From positions 1 through 34,255 of the IMG/VR virus record IMGVR_UViG_3300043391_000745: a stretch of 34,255 nt of DNA. The stretch is one strand, 5' to 3'. The translations under genes and the position numbers were made by a program. This DNA comes from a virus. Taxonomy: Duplodnaviria; Caudoviricetes. The notes beneath the pieces are model-generated. The model was given only the letters and a program-made list of their open reading frames with translations, did no database searches and was not told the origin of the DNA. Position 1 is the first letter of the stretch, and the number at the start of each line of letters is the position of its first letter. Below are positions 1 through 10,935 of the stretch, piece after piece.

Positions 1-2
1 CT

Positions 3-197
3 TCTTGTGGCTATAATAAATATCCAGATGTTCTTGAATTTCATCATAGAGATGCAGAAACAAAAGAATTTGATTGGAAAAAACTTCGTCAGATGTCTTG
101 GGATAAGGTAACAAAAGAATTAGATAAGTGCGATATGCTCTGCGCTAACTGCCATAGAGAGCGACATTACGAAATATTTTCTCTAAATAAAAAATAG
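3..197 (+). CDS. HNH endonuclease, 5'-truncated by window edge
   Basis: Manual translation SCGYNKYPDVLEFHHRD...ELDKCDMLCANCHRERH ending at TAG 195-197; HH...LCxNCH signature of HNH nucleases. Confidence 0.85.
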   Translation, partial: SCGYNKYPDVLEFHHRDAETKEFDWKKLRQMSWDKVTKELDKCDMLCANCHRERHYEIFSLNKK

Positions 198-213
198 AAT
201 GTATTCTATCTAT

Positions 214-330
214 GTGAGAAATATTTTTGAGAAATTCGGCGTGGAGTTTTTTATTTTATGTTTAATGTTAATGATTTGTTGGAGCGGGGCACAAGAATTG
301 GTCAAAATAGTAATTACACATTTAAAATAA
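214..330 (+). CDS. small membrane protein (38 aa; alternative ATG at 199)
   Basis: Manual ORF MRNIFEKFGVEFFILCLMLMICWSGAQELVKIVITHLK with one hydrophobic stretch. Confidence 0.45.
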   Translation: MRNIFEKFGVEFFILCLMLMICWSGAQELVKIVITHLK

Positions 331-400
331 TTTTTTTTTAAAATCATATTTTTGTAAATAATAATTGAAATATCTAAAGTTCTAATGTAAAATACTATAG

Positions 401-562
401 ATGAAAAATGAAAATAGAATCAGCAAGATTTTAGAGAAAAGAGTTCTTAAAGACGAAGATCCTAAAACTATAGCTCAAATAGATAAGTTTTTAAATAATC
501 TAGAAGTCGTTTTCGTTAAATGGGCTAAAGCTCATCCCAATTGGAAAGAATCAGAAGAATAA
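401..562 (+). CDS. hypothetical protein (53 aa)
   Basis: Manual ORF MKNENRISKILEKRVLKDEDPK...HPNWKESEE; ATGTAA late-type motif at 385-390. Confidence 0.6.
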   Translation: MKNENRISKILEKRVLKDEDPKTIAQIDKFLNNLEVVFVKWAKAHPNWKESEE

Positions 563-571
563 TTAATTACT

Positions 572-646
572 GTAACTGGTTTAGTATCAAGTAGTTACAA
601 AAGATCCCTCCCTGCCGTCGTAAGTCGTTGACCATCAATGAGATTT
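572..646. repeat. 75-bp double-palindrome element, copy 1
   Basis: GTAACTGGTTTA-GTA-TCAAGTAGTTAC (572-598), 21-bp core AAAAGATCCCTCCCTGCCGTC, GTAAGTCGTTGA-CCA-TCAATGAGATTT (620-646). Confidence 0.9.
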
Positions 647-661
647 AACTAAAGATTTTTC

Positions 662-689
662 TTGTGAAAAAGCAAAGGTATGGTATATT
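662..689 (+). promoter_or_regulatory. sigma70-type early promoter, likely leaderless transcript
   Basis: TTGTGA-16 bp-(TGG)TATATT, ATG 6 nt downstream at 696. Confidence 0.7.
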
Positions 690-695
690 TAACCT

Positions 696-962
696 ATGAA
701 CAAAATCAAAAACGCAGTTATATACTTAACCTCATATCTGAAACACTTCGTCCTTTTCCTTTTTGGGCAAAGGTATTTAATCGAATACAAACCTTACGGC
801 AAGGATGATGTTTATACTTACATCATCAGCAAGCCTTCGTCCCACACGATTAGCAAGGCTGGCAACAAACTCTTTACGAGTTTTTGCTTCTCTGGTCGTA
901 TGGATTCTGGCGTGAAGCAATTCCGCTATGATAGAATTACTGGCGGTCTCTCACCAGTATAA
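696..962 (+). CDS. hypothetical early protein
   Basis: 88-aa ORF directly behind the promoter and followed by hairpins. Confidence 0.7.
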   Translation: MNKIKNAVIYLTSYLKHFVLFLFGQRYLIEYKPYGKDDVYTYIISKPSSHTISKAGNKLFTSFCFSGRMDSGVKQFRYDRITGGLSPV

Positions 963-1014
963 CAACAGAGAGATTAGAGGGTTTATTATTCTGTTCCCTC
1001 TATTCTTCATATAG

Positions 1015-1047
1015 AAAGGGCGAGACCTAAAAAATCTCGTCTTTTTT
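1015..1047 (+). terminator. intrinsic terminator
   Basis: AAAGGGCGAGA-loop-TCTCGTCTTTTTT hairpin with U-tract. Confidence 0.7.
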
Positions 1048-1048
1048 A

Positions 1049-1076
1049 TTGCACATAAACAAAGTTATGTTAAGAT
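1049..1076 (+). promoter_or_regulatory. sigma70-type promoter with no downstream ORF
   Basis: TTGCAC-16 bp-(TGT)TAAGAT, same geometry as the other early promoters. Confidence 0.6.
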
Positions 1077-1083
1077 AGTTTTA

Positions 1084-1210
1084 GTTCTTTTCCGCAAGGT
1101 GTGGAGTGACTAACCCATTAACGCCCTTGAAACCCCAATGCCCAGAGTCTGAGGCAAGTAGATGTGGGTATATATTCTCTTTGATTCTAGAGCAGAGAGA
1201 GCGGAAAGAA
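1084..1210 (+). ncRNA. candidate structured small RNA (~125 nt)
   Basis: Own promoter; 5' TTCTTTTCCGC pairs with 3' GCGGAAAGAA; internal stems ACCCAT/GTGGGT, TGCCCAG/CTGAGGCA, TCTCTTTG/CAGAGAGA; only a 4-codon ATG ORF inside. Confidence 0.5.
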
Positions 1211-1387
1211 TTATTTATTACGCCACTTTTCTCTGTGATAGCAAACCCAACTTAATAAAGCTTTTTCAAAACCAATATCTTGACCAGCTTTTTCGCTTTC
1301 AATCCATTTATGTTTTAATATCTCTTCTCGTTCTTGGATAAATTTTTTGTAAAGAGCAGATGATTCGACCAAGCCAGATACTTTCAT
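1211..1387 (-). CDS. DUF4032-like small protein (58 aa, not in ORF track)
   Basis: Manual translation MKVSGLVESSALYKKFIQEREEILKHKWIESEKAGQDIGFEKALLSWVCYHREKWRNK; motif EILxHKWxxSEKAGxDIGFExAxxxW recognised from memory; GTGTAA 9 nt upstream. Confidence 0.75.
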   Translation of the reverse strand: MKVSGLVESSALYKKFIQEREEILKHKWIESEKAGQDIGFEKALLSWVCYHREKWRNK

Positions 1388-1426
1388 TAATTTATATTAC
1401 ACTATATTGCTTTTAAATCAAGATTT

Positions 1427-1501
1427 TTATCTCTCTTATAGTCAAAGACTTACAACGCAAGGGCCCCTGCCTTTATAAGTTGTTGATGGTGAATGAGATT
1501 T
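1427..1501. repeat. 75-bp double-palindrome element, copy 2
   Basis: TTATCTCTCTTA-TAG-TCAAAGACTTAC, core AACGCAAGGGCCCCTGCCTTT, ATAAGTTGTTGA-TGG-TGAATGAGATTT. Confidence 0.9.
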
Positions 1502-1506
1502 ATTAG

Positions 1507-1534
1507 TAGACAAAAAGATAATTTCTGATATATT
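1507..1534 (+). promoter_or_regulatory. early promoter, likely leaderless
   Basis: TAGACA-16 bp-(TGA)TATATT, ATG 6 nt downstream at 1541. Confidence 0.7.
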
Positions 1535-1540
1535 TAAGCT

Positions 1541-2377
1541 ATGAAAGTAAACGAAATTATCACTGAAAAATTCATCGAAGCCCTCAACAAAGGAGTCATC
1601 CCTTGGCAGAAGCCTTGGAAAGTTTTTGACCTCTGCAATGGAGTTTCCAAAAAAGGTTATAGGGGCATCAATCAATTCTTACTTCGCATGGTAGCTTCTG
1701 ATGATTTCTTTTTTACATTCAATCAGATTAAAGAACTTGGCGGAAGAATCAAAAAAGGTGCTAAGTCCCATATGGTAGTTTATTACAAACTATTAAAGAA
1801 GAAAGATGATGAGTCGGGTGGCTTTCCTCTTATGAGATTCTATAAAGTTTTTGGTTTGAGTGATATTGAGGGCATGAAGTGGAAACAGCCCGAAGTTAAG
1901 AAGTTGGATTTTTCACCAGTAGAAGAAGCAGAAAAGTTAATCAACAAGTGCGTGATTCAGATTAAGTATGGTGGCAGTCGTGCCTGTTACTATCCAGAAG
2001 ATCATAAGATTGATTTGCCTCCAAAAGAAAATTTCAACAGCGTTGAGGAGTATTACTCCACAGCATTTCATGAGATCGGCCACGCTATGCATAAAAGCAC
2101 AGGCGATAATGTTAAGAATGGTTTTGGTTCTCAGAATTATAGCAAAGAAGAATTGACCGCAGAGATTTTTGCGAGCCTCTGTCTTAACTTCTGCGGAATT
2201 GATTCTGAAAAATGTTTTAACAATTCTGCCAGCTATCTTTCTAGTTGGTTAGAAGTATTAAAAAAAGATACAAACTTTATCATCTCAGCTTCTAGCAAAG
2301 CACAAAAAAGATTTGACGCTTTTATTGATAGAAAAGAAAGCGAAGAGATTCAAGAAGAAGAAGCTGTAACTGCTTAA
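1541..2377 (+). CDS. ardC: ArdC-like antirestriction protein (ssDNA-binding N-domain plus zincin-like metallopeptidase domain)
   Basis: IPWQKPW, YRGIN, TFNQIKELGGRIKKG, ACYYP, YYSTAFHEIGH (HExxH) and YSKEELTAE motifs typical of ArdC. Confidence 0.88.
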   Translation: MKVNEIITEKFIEALNKGVIPWQKPWKVFDLCNGVSKKGYRGINQFLLRMVASDDFFFTFNQIKELGGRIKKGAKSHMVVYYKLLKKKDDESGGFPLMRFYKVFGLSDIEGMKWKQPEVKKLDFSPVEEAEKLINKCVIQIKYGGSRACYYPEDHKIDLPPKENFNSVEEYYSTAFHEIGHAMHKSTGDNVKNGFGSQNYSKEELTAEIFASLCLNFCGIDSEKCFNNSASYLSSWLEVLKKDTNFIISASSKAQKRFDAFIDRKESEEIQEEEAVTA

Positions 2378-2440
2378 GTATTAACTACTTACGCAAGCGG
2401 GGTCCCTGCCTTCGTAAGTCATTGATAGTCAATGAGATTT
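2366..2440. repeat. 75-bp double-palindrome element, copy 3 (overlaps ArdC stop codon)
   Basis: GTAACTGCTTAA-GTA-TTAACTACTTAC, core GCAAGCGGGGTCCCTGCCTTC, GTAAGTCATTGA-TAG-TCAATGAGATTT. Confidence 0.9.
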
Positions 2441-2455
2441 AACTGTAAAAAAAAC

Positions 2456-2483
2456 TTGTCACAAGAAAAAAAAGTGTTAATCT
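2456..2483 (+). promoter_or_regulatory. early promoter, likely leaderless
   Basis: TTGTCA-16 bp-(TGT)TAATCT, ATG 6 nt downstream at 2490. Confidence 0.75.
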
Positions 2484-2489
2484 AATTCT

Positions 2490-3125
2490 ATGTTCAAAAA
2501 CAAAAAACAAGCCGAAGAGATTGTTGGCACACTCTCAAAACCCTCGAAGATGCCTGGATATGCTTATTCAACTCCTGCCAAGCGTTGTCTTATCGGGCAG
2601 AAAATGCGGAATGTTGTAGGAAGCATTTGTGCTTTTTGCTACGCTCTTAAAGGGCGTTATGTTTTCCCCAATGTTCAAAAAGCTATGGAAAAGCGTTTCG
2701 CTTCTCTTACTAACGATTTGTGGGTAGATGCTATGACTTATTTGATTGGCAAGGTTAAGAATCCACATTTCAGGTGGCACGATTCAGGAGACTTGCAAGG
2801 TGTGTGGCATATTGAAAAGATTGTGAAGATTGCAAAGAATCTTCCGCATATTTCCTTTTGGTTGCCCACAAGAGAGTATGCTTTTGTCTCAACCTATATT
2901 GAAAAAGGTGGAGAAGTGCCAAGCAATCTTACCATTCGTTTGTCTGCTCTGATGATGGATGGCCCCGCACCCGTAGGAATTGCACAACGCCTTGGCTTAT
3001 GCGTTAGCGGTGCGAGCAAGTTAGGAAACTTTAACTGCCCAAGCTCTAAACAAGGTAACAAGTGCGGTGATTGTCGCAAGTGTTGGGATAAAAATGAGTT
3101 TGCAATCGACTATAAAAAGCATTAA
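2490..3125 (+). CDS. Gp88-like Cys-rich phage protein
   Basis: LSKPSKMPG, C-x13-CxxCYA, FRWHDSGD, FWLPTRE and C-terminal CPxxxxxxxCGDCRKCW match the phage 'gene product 88' family. Confidence 0.75.
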   Translation: MFKNKKQAEEIVGTLSKPSKMPGYAYSTPAKRCLIGQKMRNVVGSICAFCYALKGRYVFPNVQKAMEKRFASLTNDLWVDAMTYLIGKVKNPHFRWHDSGDLQGVWHIEKIVKIAKNLPHISFWLPTREYAFVSTYIEKGGEVPSNLTIRLSALMMDGPAPVGIAQRLGLCVSGASKLGNFNCPSSKQGNKCGDCRKCWDKNEFAIDYKKH

Positions 3126-3186
3126 GATGTATAGGTGACATTAATATTAATTTGTATAGGCTTATTATTATCATTCTTAATCTAAA

Positions 3187-3339
3187 ATGAAAATTGAAAA
3201 ATTATTAAACGAAAACTTAGAATCTTTTTATCCTTGGAGCGACAACGATAATCCTCCACTCGATACGAATAAAAAAACCTTTGTAGAAAAAGAAAAAGAA
3301 ACTCTAGAAGATTTTGAGGGTTGGCGAGCTTGTATGTAA
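3187..3339 (+). CDS. hypothetical protein (50 aa)
   Basis: Manual ORF MKIEKLLNENLESFYPWSDND...EDFEGWRACM, ending 13 bp before repeat copy 4. Confidence 0.55.
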   Translation: MKIEKLLNENLESFYPWSDNDNPPLDTNKKTFVEKEKETLEDFEGWRACM

Positions 3340-3352
3340 AAAACTCTCTGTT

Positions 3353-3427
3353 GTAAGTCGTTGACCATTAACGATTTACAGCCGCAGGGAGGTTGCCGCT
3401 GTAAGTCGTTGATACTCAGAGACTTAG
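3353..3427. repeat. 75-bp double-palindrome element, copy 4 (core inverted)
   Basis: GTAAGTCGTTGA-CCA-TTAACGATTTAC, core AGCCGCAGGGAGGTTGCCGCT (GCAGGG is the reverse complement of CCCTGC), GTAAGTCGTTGA-TAC-TCAGAGACTTAG. Confidence 0.92.
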
Positions 3428-3519
3428 CGACGCTCTATAATTGATTTTATCAAAGCATAAATTAATTGCACAAAAACCAAACCAAAGTATGCCCAAACAC
3501 AAGTTAAAAAGATTTCCAT
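3424..3519 (-). CDS. small single-TM protein (31 aa)
   Basis: MEIFLTCVWAYFGLVFVQLIYALIKSIIERR; GGAG SD upstream; stop codon inside the repeat arm. Confidence 0.55.
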   Translation of the reverse strand: MEIFLTCVWAYFGLVFVQLIYALIKSIIERR

Positions 3520-3521
3520 AA

Positions 3522-3806
3522 TTATTCTCCACAAATTTCTGGATCACCGAAGTAACCATAGTCCTCATCTGTGCCGTGGCCAGCAGAAGCCATAGCAGAA
3601 TCATGGTCACCATCCATCGACTCATCAGGTTCACAAGATGATTCTGAAGAGCCAATGATAAGAGGATCACTTTGCTCAGAGTAAGACCGATGCACAAGAT
3701 TGTTAGCCATATTCTCCTCACGAATATCTTTCAAGATATCACGCACATCTAACACGCCCAGCATATGCTGGCTCATCCAATCTTTGAGAGAGGCTTTGTA
3801 GTCCAT
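3522..3806 (-). CDS. acidic hypothetical protein (likely start MDYKASLK at 3806)
   Basis: GGAGG SD upstream of ATG 3806; C-terminal DESMDGDHDSAMASAGHGTDEDYG. Confidence 0.7.
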   Translation of the reverse strand: MDYKASLKDWMSQHMLGVLDVRDILKDIREENMANNLVHRSYSEQSDPLIIGSSESSCEPDESMDGDHDSAMASAGHGTDEDYGYFGDPEICGE

Positions 3807-3807
3807 A

Positions 3808-3972
3808 TTATTTGACCTCCACAAGAGTTTCGTTGGAGTCATAGACTCCAGACAACGCATCGAGCATCGAGTTAACTACATCATTGGAATTGATGTAGTC
3901 AAAGAACGCATTAGCGTCCACATAGGCTTCCTCGCAGGTTTCCGTCGCTAGGTGTTGGATTTCATTTGTCAT
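3808..3972 (-). CDS. acidic hypothetical protein (54 aa)
   Basis: Manual ORF MTNEIQHLATETCEEAYVDANAFFDYINSND...LVEVK, ATG 6 nt after the -10 box. Confidence 0.7.
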   Translation of the reverse strand: MTNEIQHLATETCEEAYVDANAFFDYINSNDVVNSMLDALSGVYDSNETLVEVK

Positions 3973-3978
3973 AAGTTA

Positions 3979-4006
3979 AATGTATCACAGATTATTTTTA
4001 GATCAA
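3979..4006 (-). promoter_or_regulatory. early promoter, likely leaderless
   Basis: TTGATC-16 bp-(TGA)TACATT on the minus strand. Confidence 0.7.
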
Positions 4007-4122
4007 CATTTATTTTCAAAAAAATTGAATAGAAGAACCTCTAATAGTAAATAGGAAATAGGTTAATAGTAAATAGCACGATCTTTCGCTTTCATTCAGT
4101 TTTATGTTGAAAATCATCATTT

Positions 4123-4197
4123 GTAAGTCATTGATAGTCAAGCACTTAGGCGGGGCGCCTCCCTGCGCTTGCAAGTCGTTGATACTCAGGCTCTTAC
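4123..4197. repeat. 75-bp double-palindrome element, copy 5
   Basis: GTAAGTCATTGA-TAG-TCAAGCACTTAG, core GCGGGGCGCCTCCCTGCGCTT, GCAAGTCGTTGA-TAC-TCAGGCTCTTAC. Confidence 0.92.
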
Positions 4198-4331
4198 AAG
4201 AGGTCTCTGAGATTCAAACAACTCGCAGAAAGATAGTAGAAAAATCTCTCTCGTAAAAAGTTTTTCTGTTCACCATTTTTCACGGCGAGTCTATAAGTTT
4301 TTTTATTTATTTTGAAAAGTATTTTTTTCAT
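4194..4331 (-). CDS. small basic protein (45 aa)
   Basis: MKKILFKINKKTYRLAVKNGEQKNFLRERFFYYLSASCLNLRDLL; TAATG coupling to the upstream gene, GGAG SD, stop inside the repeat arm. Confidence 0.55.
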   Translation of the reverse strand: MKKILFKINKKTYRLAVKNGEQKNFLRERFFYYLSASCLNLRDLL

Positions 4332-4753
4332 TAGTCTCCTTTGTATTGTCCACCGCTATTATATGCTTCAGAGATTCCAGCAGAGATTCTTTTAGTTGAT
4401 TTTACTTTTTCTAAAAGTTCTTCAGTTGATTCAACTTTTTTGATGTCGAAGTATTCTCCAACGCTTGTCAAAAGTTCGTATCCACCCGAAAGAGTCCAAA
4501 GCATTAGATTCTTTAAGAAAGGTAAGTTTGGATAATGGCTATGTTCGGTAGCATCAGCATACCAGATTTCGGTTTCAGTAGTTTCACCACCGATTCTCCA
4601 AAACGATTTGTAGGAAACTTGTATAAAGTCTCCTGCTTTGATGTTAAGTGAACGGAAAGCCTCAAGTGCTTCGTTTTCTTTGCGAGCATTTTCAGCTCTG
4701 CGATTTTGCATTTCTTCTCTGAATTGTTTCATTTGTTCTTTATTTCTTTTCAT
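4331..4753 (-). CDS. hypothetical early protein
   Basis: 140-aa ORF directly behind a TTGACA promoter. Confidence 0.75.
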   Translation of the reverse strand: MKRNKEQMKQFREEMQNRRAENARKENEALEAFRSLNIKAGDFIQVSYKSFWRIGGETTETEIWYADATEHSHYPNLPFLKNLMLWTLSGGYELLTSVGEYFDIKKVESTEELLEKVKSTKRISAGISEAYNSGGQYKGD

Positions 4754-4759
4754 ATCTTT

Positions 4760-4787
4760 AATCTATCACACTTTCCTATTTTGTCAA
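4760..4787 (-). promoter_or_regulatory. early promoter, likely leaderless
   Basis: TTGACA-16 bp-(TGA)TAGATT, ATG 6 nt downstream at 4753. Confidence 0.8.
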
Positions 4788-4792
4788 ACTTT

Positions 4793-4819
4793 TTTTCTCT
4801 TTGATTATTAACGATTTAG
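4793..4819. repeat. lone degenerate 27-bp half-element
   Basis: TTTTCTCTTTGA-TTA-TTAACGATTTAG; abuts the -35 box and contains the stop of 4816..5034. Confidence 0.6.
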
Positions 4820-5034
4820 CGATACCATACAAGAGAATCTGTATCGACATTATACAATCCGCTACGAAGATAAATGGTTGTCCATTTACCTTTATCCTCA
4901 CCTTCGAGGATTTCAGCAGTTGCAGTCATAGTTTTCCAACCGATTGTAGAAGGGAAAACCTTTACGAGTAGTCTTTCGTGACCATATCGAAAAGTATTTT
5001 CATCTGTAGTTAGTTCTTTATTTATTGTTATCAT
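4816..5034 (-). CDS. hypothetical protein, paralog of 5035..5304
   Basis: Shares LVKV...TAxxxxLEGxDKxKxxTIxL with the neighbouring ORF. Confidence 0.7.
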   Translation of the reverse strand: MITINKELTTDENTFRYGHERLLVKVFPSTIGWKTMTATAEILEGEDKGKWTTIYLRSGLYNVDTDSLVWYR

Positions 5035-5304
5035 TTATTTATTTTCCTTTACTAGTTTAGCATTGTTGAGGTTGATTGTTCCAACCTTATCTTTATCTTT
5101 ACCTTCTAGGAAGGTTACAACCGCAGTATTTGCAGAAGTTTTATAAGAAACTTTTACTAAAGTTCCTTCGTATAGGTAAACATCACCGAAGTATGTTGGT
5201 GTGTTGTTAGAGTTAGTTATGATGGATTCAGTAGTATCCATATTTTTACGCATATTTTCACGCATTTGTCTGCGGTGAAAATTCCAATTTATCATTTTAT
5301 TCAT
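5035..5304 (-). CDS. hypothetical protein, paralog of 4816..5034
   Basis: LVKVSYKTSANTAVVTFLEGKDKDKVGTINL; promoter TTGACT-16 bp-(TGG)TAAACT at 5355-5382. Confidence 0.7.
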   Translation of the reverse strand: MNKMINWNFHRRQMRENMRKNMDTTESIITNSNNTPTYFGDVYLYEGTLVKVSYKTSANTAVVTFLEGKDKDKVGTINLNNAKLVKENK

Positions 5305-5378
5305 TTTATTTATTTTCTTTCTTTGTTATTTGTTATCTTTTATCTTATGTATATAGTTTACCACAATTCGTCCAAAAG

Positions 5379-5567
5379 TCAAATTATTTCTTCAATTTGT
5401 TTTTCGTTGATTATCATAGAGTTATGATGAGCAACTTCAACTTTGTGTTCATATTTTGCGAAACTTTCATCGAGTCTCTTTTGGGATTCTTCAACGGCTT
5501 TTTTGAGGTCAGCCGAAGCTTTGTCTAAATTTCCGAGGAGGATTTCTAATTTTGTTTTTCTTTTCAT
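5379..5567 (-). CDS. small coiled-coil-like protein, paralog of 6608..6760
   Basis: MKRKTKLEILLGNLDKASADLKKA...HKVEVAH; promoter TTGCAA-16 bp-(TGA)TAAATT at 5574-5601, ATG 6 nt after. Confidence 0.75.
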   Translation of the reverse strand: MKRKTKLEILLGNLDKASADLKKAVEESQKRLDESFAKYEHKVEVAHHNSMIINEKQIEEII

Positions 5568-5616
5568 ACTCTTAATTTATCACATTTTGGAAATTTTGCA
5601 AGATATTTCTTCATTT

Positions 5617-5691
5617 AAATCTCGTTCACCATCAACGAGTTACGACGCAAGGGACCCTGCCGCCGCAAGTGATTGATATTCAACTACTTAC
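5617..5691. repeat. 75-bp double-palindrome element, copy 6
   Basis: AAATCTCGTTCA-CCA-TCAACGAGTTAC, core GACGCAAGGGACCCTGCCGCC, GCAAGTGATTGA-TAT-TCAACTACTTAC. Confidence 0.92.
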
Positions 5692-6065
5692 AACTTGTAA
5701 AACTTGTGATTGCGTATTGTAGCCACTAGCCTTGCGTCCCTAGCCCACTTAGGAGCAACGCTGATGGCGTGGTAATGGTTTGCACCCTTTACAATGTCTG
5801 GCATCTGTTTATGGATGACTAGATCAGCAAGGTATAGAGCGTTCTTACCTTGTGCTGTTGCCAGTAGCTTCTTCTTGGTGGCTTCACTTACTCCACCATT
5901 CCAGAAGCTGAATTGCTTAGGCGATAGGCATACTTGCCTAGGCGTTTGCTTACGCTCTATAGTGCGTGTCTGTATGACACTAGCAACACCTGCCATACCC
6001 TCAAAGGTCTCGCCCCTAGCTTCGCCTAGTATTGTGAGTGCTACAATGAATAGTTCTGCTGTCAT
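5688..6065 (-). CDS. SleB/CwlJ-like cell wall hydrolase (Hydrolase_2); likely start MTAELF at 6065
   Basis: LTILGEARGE, VASVIQTR, QFSFWN, GANHYH, PKWA and IRNHKFY motifs. Confidence 0.88.
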   Translation of the reverse strand: MTAELFIVALTILGEARGETFEGMAGVASVIQTRTIERKQTPRQVCLSPKQFSFWNGGVSEATKKKLLATAQGKNALYLADLVIHKQMPDIVKGANHYHAISVAPKWARDARLVATIRNHKFYKL

Positions 6066-6069
6066 AGTA

Positions 6070-6489
6070 TTAGTCCCTTCCGTTGCTAACTGCACCACAG
6101 TAATCACTAGGCTTCTCTGCACTGATAGTGCCGAGGCTATACCCTTCGGAGCTACTCGCACCCCATAGGAAGCAGGTCTGACCCATAGCATCCACTATGC
6201 TCTGTGCCTTGGCCTTGGCAAGGTCAAGTAGTCCACCTTTACGCCCCTTGGCGTTGATCTTATTGATCAAGCTATGTAACGCAACCTTGGTGAGAGCGTG
6301 CATCACATCATCTGGATGAGCGTAGAAGTAGAATGCTTTGCCGTTGCCCATATCGTGCAATTTGCCGTTAGTCCCTTCCCAATTATAGATGCTATTGAAG
6401 AAGTGATTGATTTGTTTGATGTTTCCTTCGAGGAGGTAAGCATTGTTTTCGCCGAAGGTTTGGTAACTGATTTTGAGGTTTTGTTTCAT
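6070..6489 (-). CDS. hypothetical early protein
   Basis: 139-aa ORF; TTGACA (6519-6524)-17 bp-CAATAT, ATG 6 nt downstream. Confidence 0.75.
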   Translation of the reverse strand: MKQNLKISYQTFGENNAYLLEGNIKQINHFFNSIYNWEGTNGKLHDMGNGKAFYFYAHPDDVMHALTKVALHSLINKINAKGRKGGLLDLAKAKAQSIVDAMGQTCFLWGASSSEGYSLGTISAEKPSDYCGAVSNGRD

Positions 6490-6527
6490 TGGTCTATATT
6501 GCCTTTCTGTTTATGTTTTGTCAACTA

Positions 6528-6611
6528 TTATTTTTTAGCTGTTGCCATACCATAGATGCCGAGGATAAGGCACCCAATGGTAAGAGCGAAGATGATTTCT
6601 ATTTGATTCAT
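6528..6611 (-). CDS. small single-TM protein (27 aa)
   Basis: MNQIEIIFALTIGCLILGIYGMATAKK; ATGA overlap with the upstream stop. Confidence 0.55.
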   Translation of the reverse strand: MNQIEIIFALTIGCLILGIYGMATAKK

Positions 6612-6760
6612 TTAGTCATCGCTTCCTGATGGATAGCTTCCACCTTCTCTGCGTGAGCTTCAAGGGTAGCGATAGCCCTTGTAGAGGCATCCTTAAGCTC
6701 TTGGCTAGTCTTGTTGAGGTTGGCAATTAGTTGTTCGTACTTACTTAGTTTTTTCTTCAT
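6608..6760 (-). CDS. small coiled-coil-like protein (50 aa), paralog of 5379..5567
   Basis: MKKKLSKYEQLIANLNKTSQELKDASTRAIATLEAHAEKVEAIHQEAMTK; promoter TTGCGA-16 bp-(TGA)TAGATT at 6767-6794. Confidence 0.75.
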   Translation of the reverse strand: MKKKLSKYEQLIANLNKTSQELKDASTRAIATLEAHAEKVEAIHQEAMTK

Positions 6761-6809
6761 AGAGTTAATCTATCACAGAATAACAATATCGCAAGATATT
6801 TCTTCAGTT

Positions 6810-6836
6810 AAATTTCATTGATAGTCAACGACTTAC
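6810..6836. repeat. lone 27-bp half-element at the right edge of the array
   Basis: AAATTTCATTGA-TAG-TCAACGACTTAC followed by a degenerate GC core (CCCGCC at core positions 12-17), no second palindrome. Confidence 0.85.
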
Positions 6837-7201
6837 AAAGAGGCTAACCCGCCCCATGTTATTTTTCTTTCATTTTTAGTCTTAATTCTTTTGTTCGTTT
6901 TTTCTGTGAACGATTTTGCTCTTATCATTTGGCTAATCAAACTGAATGAGAAGCATTTTAGAATTAGGCCACCCCATTTTTGAAAAAAATGAACGACTTC
7001 AATTTTGAAAACACACGAGGGGGTACTAATATCATTCTCCCCTTATTAATTAAAGTATTTATAATATACCTATACCCACCCCCTTTTTTAAAATGTATTA
7101 AAATTCATCTATAAACCATATAAAATGAAAATAAAAAAATCCACGGGGCTATTTTTATATATAACTCTTTTTATATATACTACCAGTGTAATAAATAGTA
7201 T

Positions 7202-7426
7202 ATGAATTTAAACTATAAAATAGTACTATTAGTAGTTGGATTAGGAACAGTTTTCTTTCTCTTATCACAAAAACATAAAAATCAAAATAAACCAAATCAG
7301 AAGCAAATAACAGAAGAAGCAATAATTATTGATGAAAAAAAGCCAAAAATCGCCACGCCCGAGGTTTATATTTCTAGGCCAACCCAAAATGGGCTAGGTA
7401 TATCCAATAACTGGAAAAGCAAATAA
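7202..7426 (+). CDS. small membrane-anchored protein
   Basis: N-terminal TM IVLLVVGLGTVFFLL; GTGTAA at 7186-7191. Confidence 0.65.
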   Translation: MNLNYKIVLLVVGLGTVFFLLSQKHKNQNKPNQKQITEEAIIIDEKKPKIATPEVYISRPTQNGLGISNNWKSK

Positions 7427-9743: not shown

Positions 9744-10418
9744 ATGATTAAGAGTTTTTTTATTAAAAAGTTAAAGGAACTTAAAAAAGAAGCTGAAAAT
9801 AATATTACAGCTTCTAGCGAAACTTCTGATATTGAATTTAATTTTGATGTCATGGTTGCGGGAGATTTAGCTCAAGCAATTCAATATATAGCTGATCAAT
9901 TGCAATTCGTATCAACTGCCTCTTCCTCAGCTAGTGGTCCTAGTAGTGGCCCTGCTGTAGCTTCTGCTGTTTCTGCTGTTGCTGCCGTTGCTTCTTCCGC
10001 TTCTGCCGCTGCCCCTTCTTCAAGTTCTTCTTCTTCACCTTCTTCAAGTTCTTCTTCAAGTTCTTCTTCAAGCTCTTCTTCAAGCTCTTCTTCAAGCTCT
10101 TCTTCGTCGTCGTCTGTTTCTGCTGCTGTTTCTGCTGCTGTTTCTGCTGCTTCTGCCGCCGCAGCCGCTCCTGCTTCTGTTTCCGCTTCTTCCGCTGCTT
10201 CTTCCGCTGCTTCTTCCGCTGCTTCTTCTGCCTCTTCTGCCGCTTCTTCTGCTGCAGCTGCTGCTTCTTCTGGTGCTGCTTCTTCTTCTGGCGCTTCTCA
10301 TCCAGAAGGGTCAACTACTGGAAGCGGAGGAGGCCAACCTCCAACACCAGGAGCATCGGCTTCATCTTCATCTTCGGCATCTGCCGTAGCTGCTAGTGGA
10401 CCAAGACCACGTCTTTAA
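9744..10418 (+). CDS. Ser/Ala-rich low-complexity protein, paralog A
   Basis: Conserved N-terminal block TSDIEFNFDVMVAGD and HPEGSTTGSGGGQPPTP shared with the next gene; GTGTAA at 9729-9734. Confidence 0.75.
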   Translation: MIKSFFIKKLKELKKEAENNITASSETSDIEFNFDVMVAGDLAQAIQYIADQLQFVSTASSSASGPSSGPAVASAVSAVAAVASSASAAAPSSSSSSSPSSSSSSSSSSSSSSSSSSSSSSSSSVSAAVSAAVSAASAAAAAPASVSASSAASSAASSAASSASSAASSAAAAASSGAASSSGASHPEGSTTGSGGGQPPTPGASASSSSSASAVAASGPRPRL

Positions 10419-10425
10419 AGAATAC

Positions 10426-10935
10426 GTGAATAAAGATAATTTTCTTAAAAGATTAAAAGAACTTAAAAAAACTGAAACTGATATTTCAATTTTCAACCAA
10501 ACTTCTGATATTGAATTTAATTTTGATGTTATGGTTGCTGGGGATATAGCTGAAGCTTTGCAATGGATCGCTAAAGAACTTCAATTTACACCTCCACCAC
10601 CTCCACCACCTCCACCACCTCCACCACCAGGAGCCACACCTCCACCACCGCCACCAGGAGCCACACCTCCACCACCGCCACCAGGAGCCACACCTCCACC
10701 ACCGCCACCACCGCCACCACCTCCGCCACCACAACCAACAACTCCTCCGCCTTCACCTCCACCTCCGCCTCCTCCTCCGCCCCCACCCCCACCACCTAAT
10801 CATCCAGAAGGATCAACTACTGGAAGCGGAGGGGGACAACCTCCAACACCACCCCCACCTTCACCTCCACCTCCGCCTCCCCCTGGACCAAGAATGCAGC
10901 CTCCAAAAGTTAGCTCTTTAAATCCAGGATTTTAA
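10426..10935 (+). CDS. Pro-rich low-complexity protein, paralog B (start GTG 10426 by alignment)
   Basis: MNKDNFLKRLKELKK aligns with MIKSFFIKKLKELKK; same conserved blocks; poly-Pro with GATPPPPPP repeats. Confidence 0.75.
   Translation: MNKDNFLKRLKELKKTETDISIFNQTSDIEFNFDVMVAGDIAEALQWIAKELQFTPPPPPPPPPPPPPGATPPPPPPGATPPPPPPGATPPPPPPPPPPPPPQPTTPPPSPPPPPPPPPPPPPPNHPEGSTTGSGGGQPPTPPPPSPPPPPPPGPRMQPPKVSSLNPGF

Follow-up and report, generated by a model that had tools for sequence, protein, structure and literature searches.

Gene stops on a twin IHF-like palindrome in a phage small-gene island as a likely side effect of gene shuffling

We analysed a 34,255-nt stretch of tailed-phage DNA (IMG/VR record IMGVR_UViG_3300043391_000745; "the window" below means this whole stretch), in which several small genes end with their stop codon inside an arm of a repeated 27-bp palindrome, an arrangement that an earlier note on this DNA had likened to the attC sites of integrons. 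We found that this overlap of stop and palindrome is likely an ordinary side effect of a known type of phage gene shuffling and that the palindrome array is not an attC array. The four genes concerned are full-length and have not been trimmed; the TAA on which they end is intrinsic to the palindrome motif and does not depend on a gene stopping there; and genes are gained and lost inside the repeated unit, at its TAA edge and elsewhere, the edge being one joint among several.

The window comes from a large tailed phage, of which it represents 34 kb (with terminase, PhoH and ERCC4 nuclease matches). One relative is G001, a 172-kb record rated 100% complete, with an ArdC identity of 91%; it is one of three related phage records, G001-G003, that are 100%, 86% and 77% complete. 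The palindrome is tied to a small-gene island at 570-6840, which carries ArdC, GP88 and a SleB-like hydrolase, is matched in relatives by islands that also bear DUF932, L5 gp82, DUF3846 and tRNAs, and has converging halves, with plus-strand genes predominating on the left and minus-strand genes on the right. Profile matching locates 15 copies of the palindrome, all within 572-6836, as six pairs with a 48-bp period and three singles, while shuffled controls (20 shuffles of 1-7400) yield at most one weak match apiece; in G001, 25 of the 28 profile matches fall in one 12-kb stretch. Each pair forms a 75-bp double unit (e.g., 4123-4197) of two palindromes and a 21-bp GC-rich core, which lies between complementary inner arms and is 65% GC.

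Four minus-strand genes end where the earlier note had placed them, with TTA on the plus strand at 3424-3426, 4194-4196, 4816-4818 and 5688-5690, in palindromes that start at 3401, 4171, 4793 and 5665. We denote this register +2, i.e., a stop at gene-strand positions 2-4 of the palindrome (plus-strand positions 24-26). The genes are a hydrophobic 31-aa open reading frame (ORF) of family c76 (3424..3519; +2 in 6/6), a 45-aa ORF of family c13 (4194..4331; +2 in 24/25), a 72-aa paralogue of family c5 (4816..5034; +2 in five and +20 in four) and a full-length, 125-aa SleB-like cell-wall hydrolase (PF07486; 5688..6065, with a likely start at 6065; +2). The short ORFs, whose reality had been raised as a point of doubt, are genuine genes, all four being under purifying selection, with pN/pS of 0.31 (6 unique sequences), 0.20 (22), 0.08 (4) and 0.22 (25), respectively. 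A fifth proposed case, the ORF at 6833..6928, is spurious, since tblastn against the other 27 loci of our comparison finds no homologue (best E 0.63) and the underlying DNA lacks conservation. The ArdC-like anti-restriction protein (1541..2377, plus strand; PF08401 and PF18818) does stop in an arm in a different register, at +10 of the palindrome at 2366, as had been described. Further counter-examples had been overlooked: the genes at 401..562 and 3187..3339 stop at -11 and -15, respectively, and a 62-aa ORF (5379..5567, minus strand) crosses the palindrome at 5399-5425 to stop at +45, with its TGA overlapping the next -35 box. With these and ArdC counted, 4/8 real gene ends facing a palindrome in the window are at +2.

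Stop positions were tabulated against a random-frame expectation, as the earlier note had proposed, over 28 loci: the window, 21 of 27 ArdC loci (six near-duplicates excluded) and six of eight loci found by pattern (two excluded as contigs already represented). These loci are mutually related and not independent, and the overlapping L033 and L034 were both retained; shadow ORF clusters, including an ORF that is the shadow of a tRNA-Ile, were left out of the counts, as was DUF932, which stops 69-72 nt ahead of the unit in 13/13 cases. A simulated frame entering the element stops at +2 in 718 of 2,988 entries (0.24), with an upper limit of one in three. By this measure the window alone, with 4/6 palindrome-entering genes at +2, does not differ significantly from a random frame (p=0.10). 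Across the 28 loci, 206 facing gene ends from 18 families divide into 61 at +2, 89 upstream and 56 elsewhere inside or reading through, and a +2 form occurs in 11 of the 18 families. A hand tally in which every combination of family and offset counts once places 12/20 entering junction types at +2 (p=0.013 for an expectation of 1/3, p=0.0006 for the simulated 0.24), and the +2 enrichment across these related loci is real.

The enrichment stands beside a general tightness of the island, where the modal gap between genes has a median of 2.5 nt (42 family pairs), TAA makes up 178 of 242 stops and some gene stops also abut or overlap -35 boxes. Transfer RNA genes provide a control: 19 of the 61 tRNAs called have their 3' end near a palindrome, with 10 flush or overlapping, seven at 9-15 nt and two at 34-35 nt (ends by ARAGORN, which may include tail positions). 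Although tRNA genes have no stop codon, they show the same two states at the palindrome edge. Island tRNAs that adjoin palindromes include tRNA-Glu (L010 8589-8662), tRNA-Ile(TAT) (L017 6712-6804) and tRNA-Thr (L020 14967-15038); some of these genes are missing from a share of the relatives.

The suggestion that genes had been trimmed at the element is contradicted by their protein ends. Where the SleB stop is present (70 loci), the protein ends in HKFY[K/R]L in 67, whatever comes next, and what comes next varies widely: over 72 loci the junction is at +2 in 27, is followed by a bare promoter in 25, lies at -23 in six and at -6 in five, is followed by a gene in three, is of another kind in two and runs into the contig end in four. 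The proposed comparison of SleB homologues likewise revealed no cut, 116/120 ending two residues past HxF[YFW], and the window protein matches the Pfam model through position 100 of 100, two residues short of its stop. Families c10, c8 and one c13 type have identical C-termini with or without a spacer, and c22, c38, c44 and c6 are constant in length within one residue. An acidic 94-aa ORF of family c8 (3522..3806, minus strand; start read off the sequence) has two relatives with the same C-terminus placed directly on the palindrome TAA. Since the C-termini are identical whether or not a spacer follows, trimming is rejected. In the gene tree of SleB the +2 state requires seven changes, which indicates that it flips repeatedly, probably also by allele exchange.

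Pairwise alignments of the loci resolve 26 types of gene gain or loss, of which seven lie inside a unit, five at the TAA edge and 14 elsewhere (one junction class in the promoter region being scored as elsewhere); the count inside units is inflated, since the alignments run through repeats. The units cover ~7.5% of the island, as against 12/26 event types inside them or at their edge. The junctions at the TAA edge share 3-6 bases, stop included. For example, the window SleB junction matches the L005 arrangement except that it lacks a 449-bp module of promoter and DUF3846, with six flanking shared bases that include the stop, and the 31-aa gene is a 98-bp indel that ends on the TAA, between the upstream gene's stop and the palindrome, and is absent in L009 and L014. 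Several of the events elsewhere fall at stop-start junctions without a palindrome or between paralogues; relative to L001, for instance, the window is missing a segment that holds two genes together with a double unit, and the removal took place between repeated stop-start junctions of 38 bp and not at a palindrome. The ArdC module is absent in L028, where a single chimeric double unit (3986-4060) joins tRNA-Glu to the GP88 promoter, with the crossover near the border of core and second palindrome, far from any stop. The proposal that the element is the cassette boundary is thereby upheld in one part, in that its TAA edge is a real joint (5/26 event types, including the DUF3846 module and the 31-aa gene), and fails in the other, with 14/26 elsewhere. 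Many relatives also display "empty" modules of ~160 bp, made of two tandem double units with no gene between them (e.g., L001 9316-9552, L008 15110-15344 and L017 13454-13688), and the corresponding place in the window has none.

The conserved part of the element resembles a protein-binding site. The IHF binding core is given in PMC7581858 as WATCAANNNNTTR, and with at most one mismatch it occurs in an arm of 13/15 window palindromes, as against 10/13,574 background 13-mers, and in 343/389 unique palindromes overall. (Table 2 of PMC6907758 puts this motif under H-NS; its rows are apparently swapped, and it was not used.) The TAA that serves as a stop is the complement of the core's TTR element, and TAA is retained at positions 2-4 in 62/67 palindromes whose upstream gene stops earlier. 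From the promoter-side palindrome to the ATG the distance is 39 or 49-50 nt, values one helical turn apart, in 7/9 cases in the window and in most families, and between the two lie -35 and -10 boxes that match the consensus of a sigma70-type promoter. At 620-700, 1380-1545, 2414-2492, 4750-4819, 5565-5643 and 6758-6836 ~6 nt separate the -10 box from the ATG and there is no Shine-Dalgarno sequence, which suggests that the early mRNAs may be leaderless. No positive covariation was detected for the palindromes, the pair or the core (five pairing schemes, 81 oriented doubles, z -4.9 to 0.0). The core folds barely better than its shuffles (-4.0 vs -3.3 kcal/mol), end-to-end folding is seen in only one of six window units (3353-3427; z -6.5 and -4.8, one value per strand), the other five give inconsistent folds (z -3.0 to +0.3), and a terminator scan of the window calls none of the units. 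The absence of covariation together with the fixed phasing would fit a site that a protein binds as duplex DNA, phased with RNA polymerase; accordingly, the palindrome is likely a docking site for an IHF-like protein ahead of early promoters, as judged from its sequence.

We consider it probable that the shared stops reflect tight packing combined with stop-preserving, short-homology joins against this conserved IHF-like promoter module. Changes of a spacer or of a whole gene that join a stop to the palindrome TAA leave the protein unaltered, and the shared stop likely arises thus. As a double-stranded protein site, the palindrome would have an edge that cannot be eroded, so that deletions and insertions upstream would end there; joins of TAA on TAA would be helped by microhomology and neutral for the protein. 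Homologous recombination, whether among phages or among repeats, may then propagate such joints, in the manner of the promoter-early stem-loops (PeSLs) of T4-type phages, for which the complete relative G001 has candidate machinery in RecA-, RuvB- and Endonuclease VII-like proteins.

Several observations weigh against this explanation. Three unrelated small genes (c76, c6 and c38) alternate in the slot between the c8 stop and the palindrome, and the +2 register is enriched over a random frame, both of which a targeted insertion mechanism would also produce. Four of the 120 SleB homologues exceed the rest by 23-26 residues in length, and the whole set consists of close relatives (66-97% identity). 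The DUF3846 module was seemingly gained in one clade and lost in another on the SleB tree (midpoint root, recombination likely), and a simple one-way deletion is therefore not supported. In the promoter-side arm, which is consistently degenerate and AT-rich, the match to the IHF core is often poor (2-5 mismatches), and none of the three phage records matches the HU/IHF family (PF00216), from which it follows that the binding protein would be the host's.

The alternative that fares best, which we nevertheless regard as unlikely, is that the TAA edge is a dedicated entry point, at which a so far unrecognised recombinase of the phage or its host, perhaps directed by the bound IHF-like protein, inserts or excises whole genes. 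This would account for the 5/26 event types placed exactly at the edge, where just 3-6 bases are shared, for the +2 form in 11/18 families and for three different genes in one slot, and IHF is described as a cofactor of site-specific recombination (PMC7581858). It is opposed by the 14/26 event types elsewhere, several of them at palindrome-free stop-start junctions, by the tRNAs that collapse onto the same edge and by the 145/206 gene ends that are not at +2. Moreover, no tyrosine or serine recombinase was found in the three phage records (one 100% complete), the PF00239 (serine resolvase) search of G001-G003 giving 0/3, nor among the 114 of 135 large ORFs scanned. A version without an integrase, in which a host IHF-like protein would focus short-homology recombination on the outer TAA with the stop codon as anchor, appears about equally improbable. 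Through such a port, whole genes and tRNAs would be added or dropped ahead of a fixed regulatory module, with an integron-like outcome but without integron chemistry. If the TAA edge were indeed a targeted entry point, it would give phages a new way of acquiring anti-defence genes.

A little less probable still is that the unit acts as RNA, i.e., as a terminator or a 3'-stabilising stem-loop selected to begin at the stop codon. The 65% GC core between complementary inner arms recalls the polyG/polyC stem-loop of the PeSL, and both tRNAs and genes end at the unit. However, the weak core fold without covariation and the negative terminator scan count against it, as do the core-less single palindrome at 4793, which also carries a +2 stop, and the units at 1427 and 6810, where nothing ends.

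Integron ORFs often stop in the inverse core of attC, and the weakest reading holds that the units are attC-like single-strand hairpins and the island an array of integron-like cassettes on which an IntI-type integrase acts. In its favour are the stop inside an arm beside the gene end, the 75-bp length, which falls in the 50-150 bp range of attC searches (PMC2674596), and the end-to-end fold of unit 3353-3427. An attC site is described as ending in RYYYAAC and GTTRRRY, as having a bottom strand that folds with extrahelical bases and as being recognised by IntI (PMC5027507, PMC2674596, PMC12901181), and integron cassettes as mostly promoterless and co-oriented (PMC5027507). Here, AAC and GTT stand at both ends in 0/157 unique 75-mers, RYYYAAC is matched by none of the five stop-bearing window arms, and the four stops read TAAG, TAAG, TAAA and TAAG, none of them TAAC. 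Across the 81 oriented doubles there is no covariation to betray a hairpin, and the five other window units fold inconsistently. The units carry their own promoters and the genes occupy both strands, none of the three related records matches PF00589 or TIGR02249, and the units have no Rfam match; the integrase negatives cover phage records, and a host-encoded IntI may exist. The analogy drawn in the earlier note thus fails for want of AAC/GTT ends, covariation and any integrase found, and because of the promoters and mixed strands, leaving this reading a very remote prospect. A stop codon inside a palindrome arm is no evidence of an integron, as a TAA-bearing site in a packed island collects both stops and tRNA ends.

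The individual elements of the array occur in varied settings. The double unit at 572..646 has an upstream gene stop at -11 and lies 49 nt from the ATG at 696. That at 1427..1501 has divergent promoters on both sides, each with its ATG 39 nt off, and no gene end. At 2366..2440, ArdC enters by three codons, and the GP88 ATG follows 49 nt on. The island halves converge at the unit 3353-3427 (palindromes 3353..3379 and 3401..3427), where a plus-strand gene stops at -15 and the outer palindrome contains the stop of the 31-aa gene. The unit at 4123..4197 (palindromes at 4123 and 4171) contains the stop of the 45-aa ORF, and that at 5617..5691 (palindromes at 5617 and 5665) lies 49 nt from the ATG at 5567. 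Among the singles, 4793..4819 has a TTGACA -35 box 5 nt downstream and the ATG at 4753 39 nt on, 5399..5425 lies inside the 62-aa ORF with a -35 box 16 nt downstream, and the last, 6810..6836, stands 49 nt ahead of the ATG at 6760, with only the spurious ORF ending there.

Other features of the window and its relatives include tandem paralogues of 72 and 89 aa at 4816-5304 and two paralogous ORFs at 9744-10935 that have N- and C-terminal blocks in common and low-complexity middles, Ser/Ala-rich in one and Pro-rich in the other. Between the convergent genes 696..962 and 1211..1387 lies a terminator-like hairpin (1021-1039), and the same intergene (1021-1200) holds a GC-richer non-coding stretch at ~1090-1175 with no Rfam or tRNA match; an Rfam search of 1-7400 with E up to 1 returned no matches. 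G001 (L043 1805-6342) carries genes with FecR, N-methyl (prepilin-type) and PATR domains, which we take to be typical of Verrucomicrobia and Planctomycetes and hence a weak hint to its host. A strict-palindrome scan of prokaryote genomes gave four matches, comprising two phage-like contigs in metagenome-assembled genomes and two single Fibrobacter sites. The contigs (L036 and L038) have palindrome pairs at 53-bp and 42-bp periods, and the two Fibrobacter genomes have one perfect palindrome in the same intergenic region (L037 1501-1527, L039 1501-1527).

The twin IHF-like promoter module is a more interesting object than the stop overlap, and our literature searches, none of which used the motif itself, found no paper that describes it. 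In its apparent mode of working it resembles the PeSL cassettes of T4-type phages (PMC2839356, PMC4122927), from which its conserved core differs. Both are repeated intergenically in a variable early region, include a sigma70-type promoter and start at the upstream stop codon, and both (the PeSLs as ~100-bp modules) mark the gain and loss of small ORFans via recombination between copies. Unlike in the PeSL as described there, the conserved part here is a pair of 27-bp IHF-like palindromes with a 48-bp period, phased to the promoter and without covariation; the PeSL ends in a Shine-Dalgarno sequence, whereas here the ATG lies ~6 nt past the -10 box and is likely leaderless. For the PeSL, terminator or attenuator activity of the stem-loop and mini-circles formed during infection are also described. 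Integron attC arrays likewise place a dyad repeat behind small genes, with the stop in the gene-proximal arm and a variable gene content, but differ in their RYYYAAC/GTTRRRY ends, conserved single-strand fold, IntI and a crossover confined to one point. Relative to the IHF core of PMC7581858, the arms match, but here each palindrome is a symmetric fusion of two cores and recurs in pairs, and binding is putative. The EGeRS2 promoters of pLS20-family plasmids (PMC8708921) are similarly repeated, protein-controlled promoter regions of variable operons that include ardC; they are plasmid elements with a known ribbon-helix-helix repressor, and the likeness is one of description. Finally, general phage mosaicism (PMC3029335) also features exchanges near gene boundaries that preserve function, by short homology or illegitimate recombination, but here the recurrent boundary is a conserved regulatory palindrome that supplies the TAA itself.

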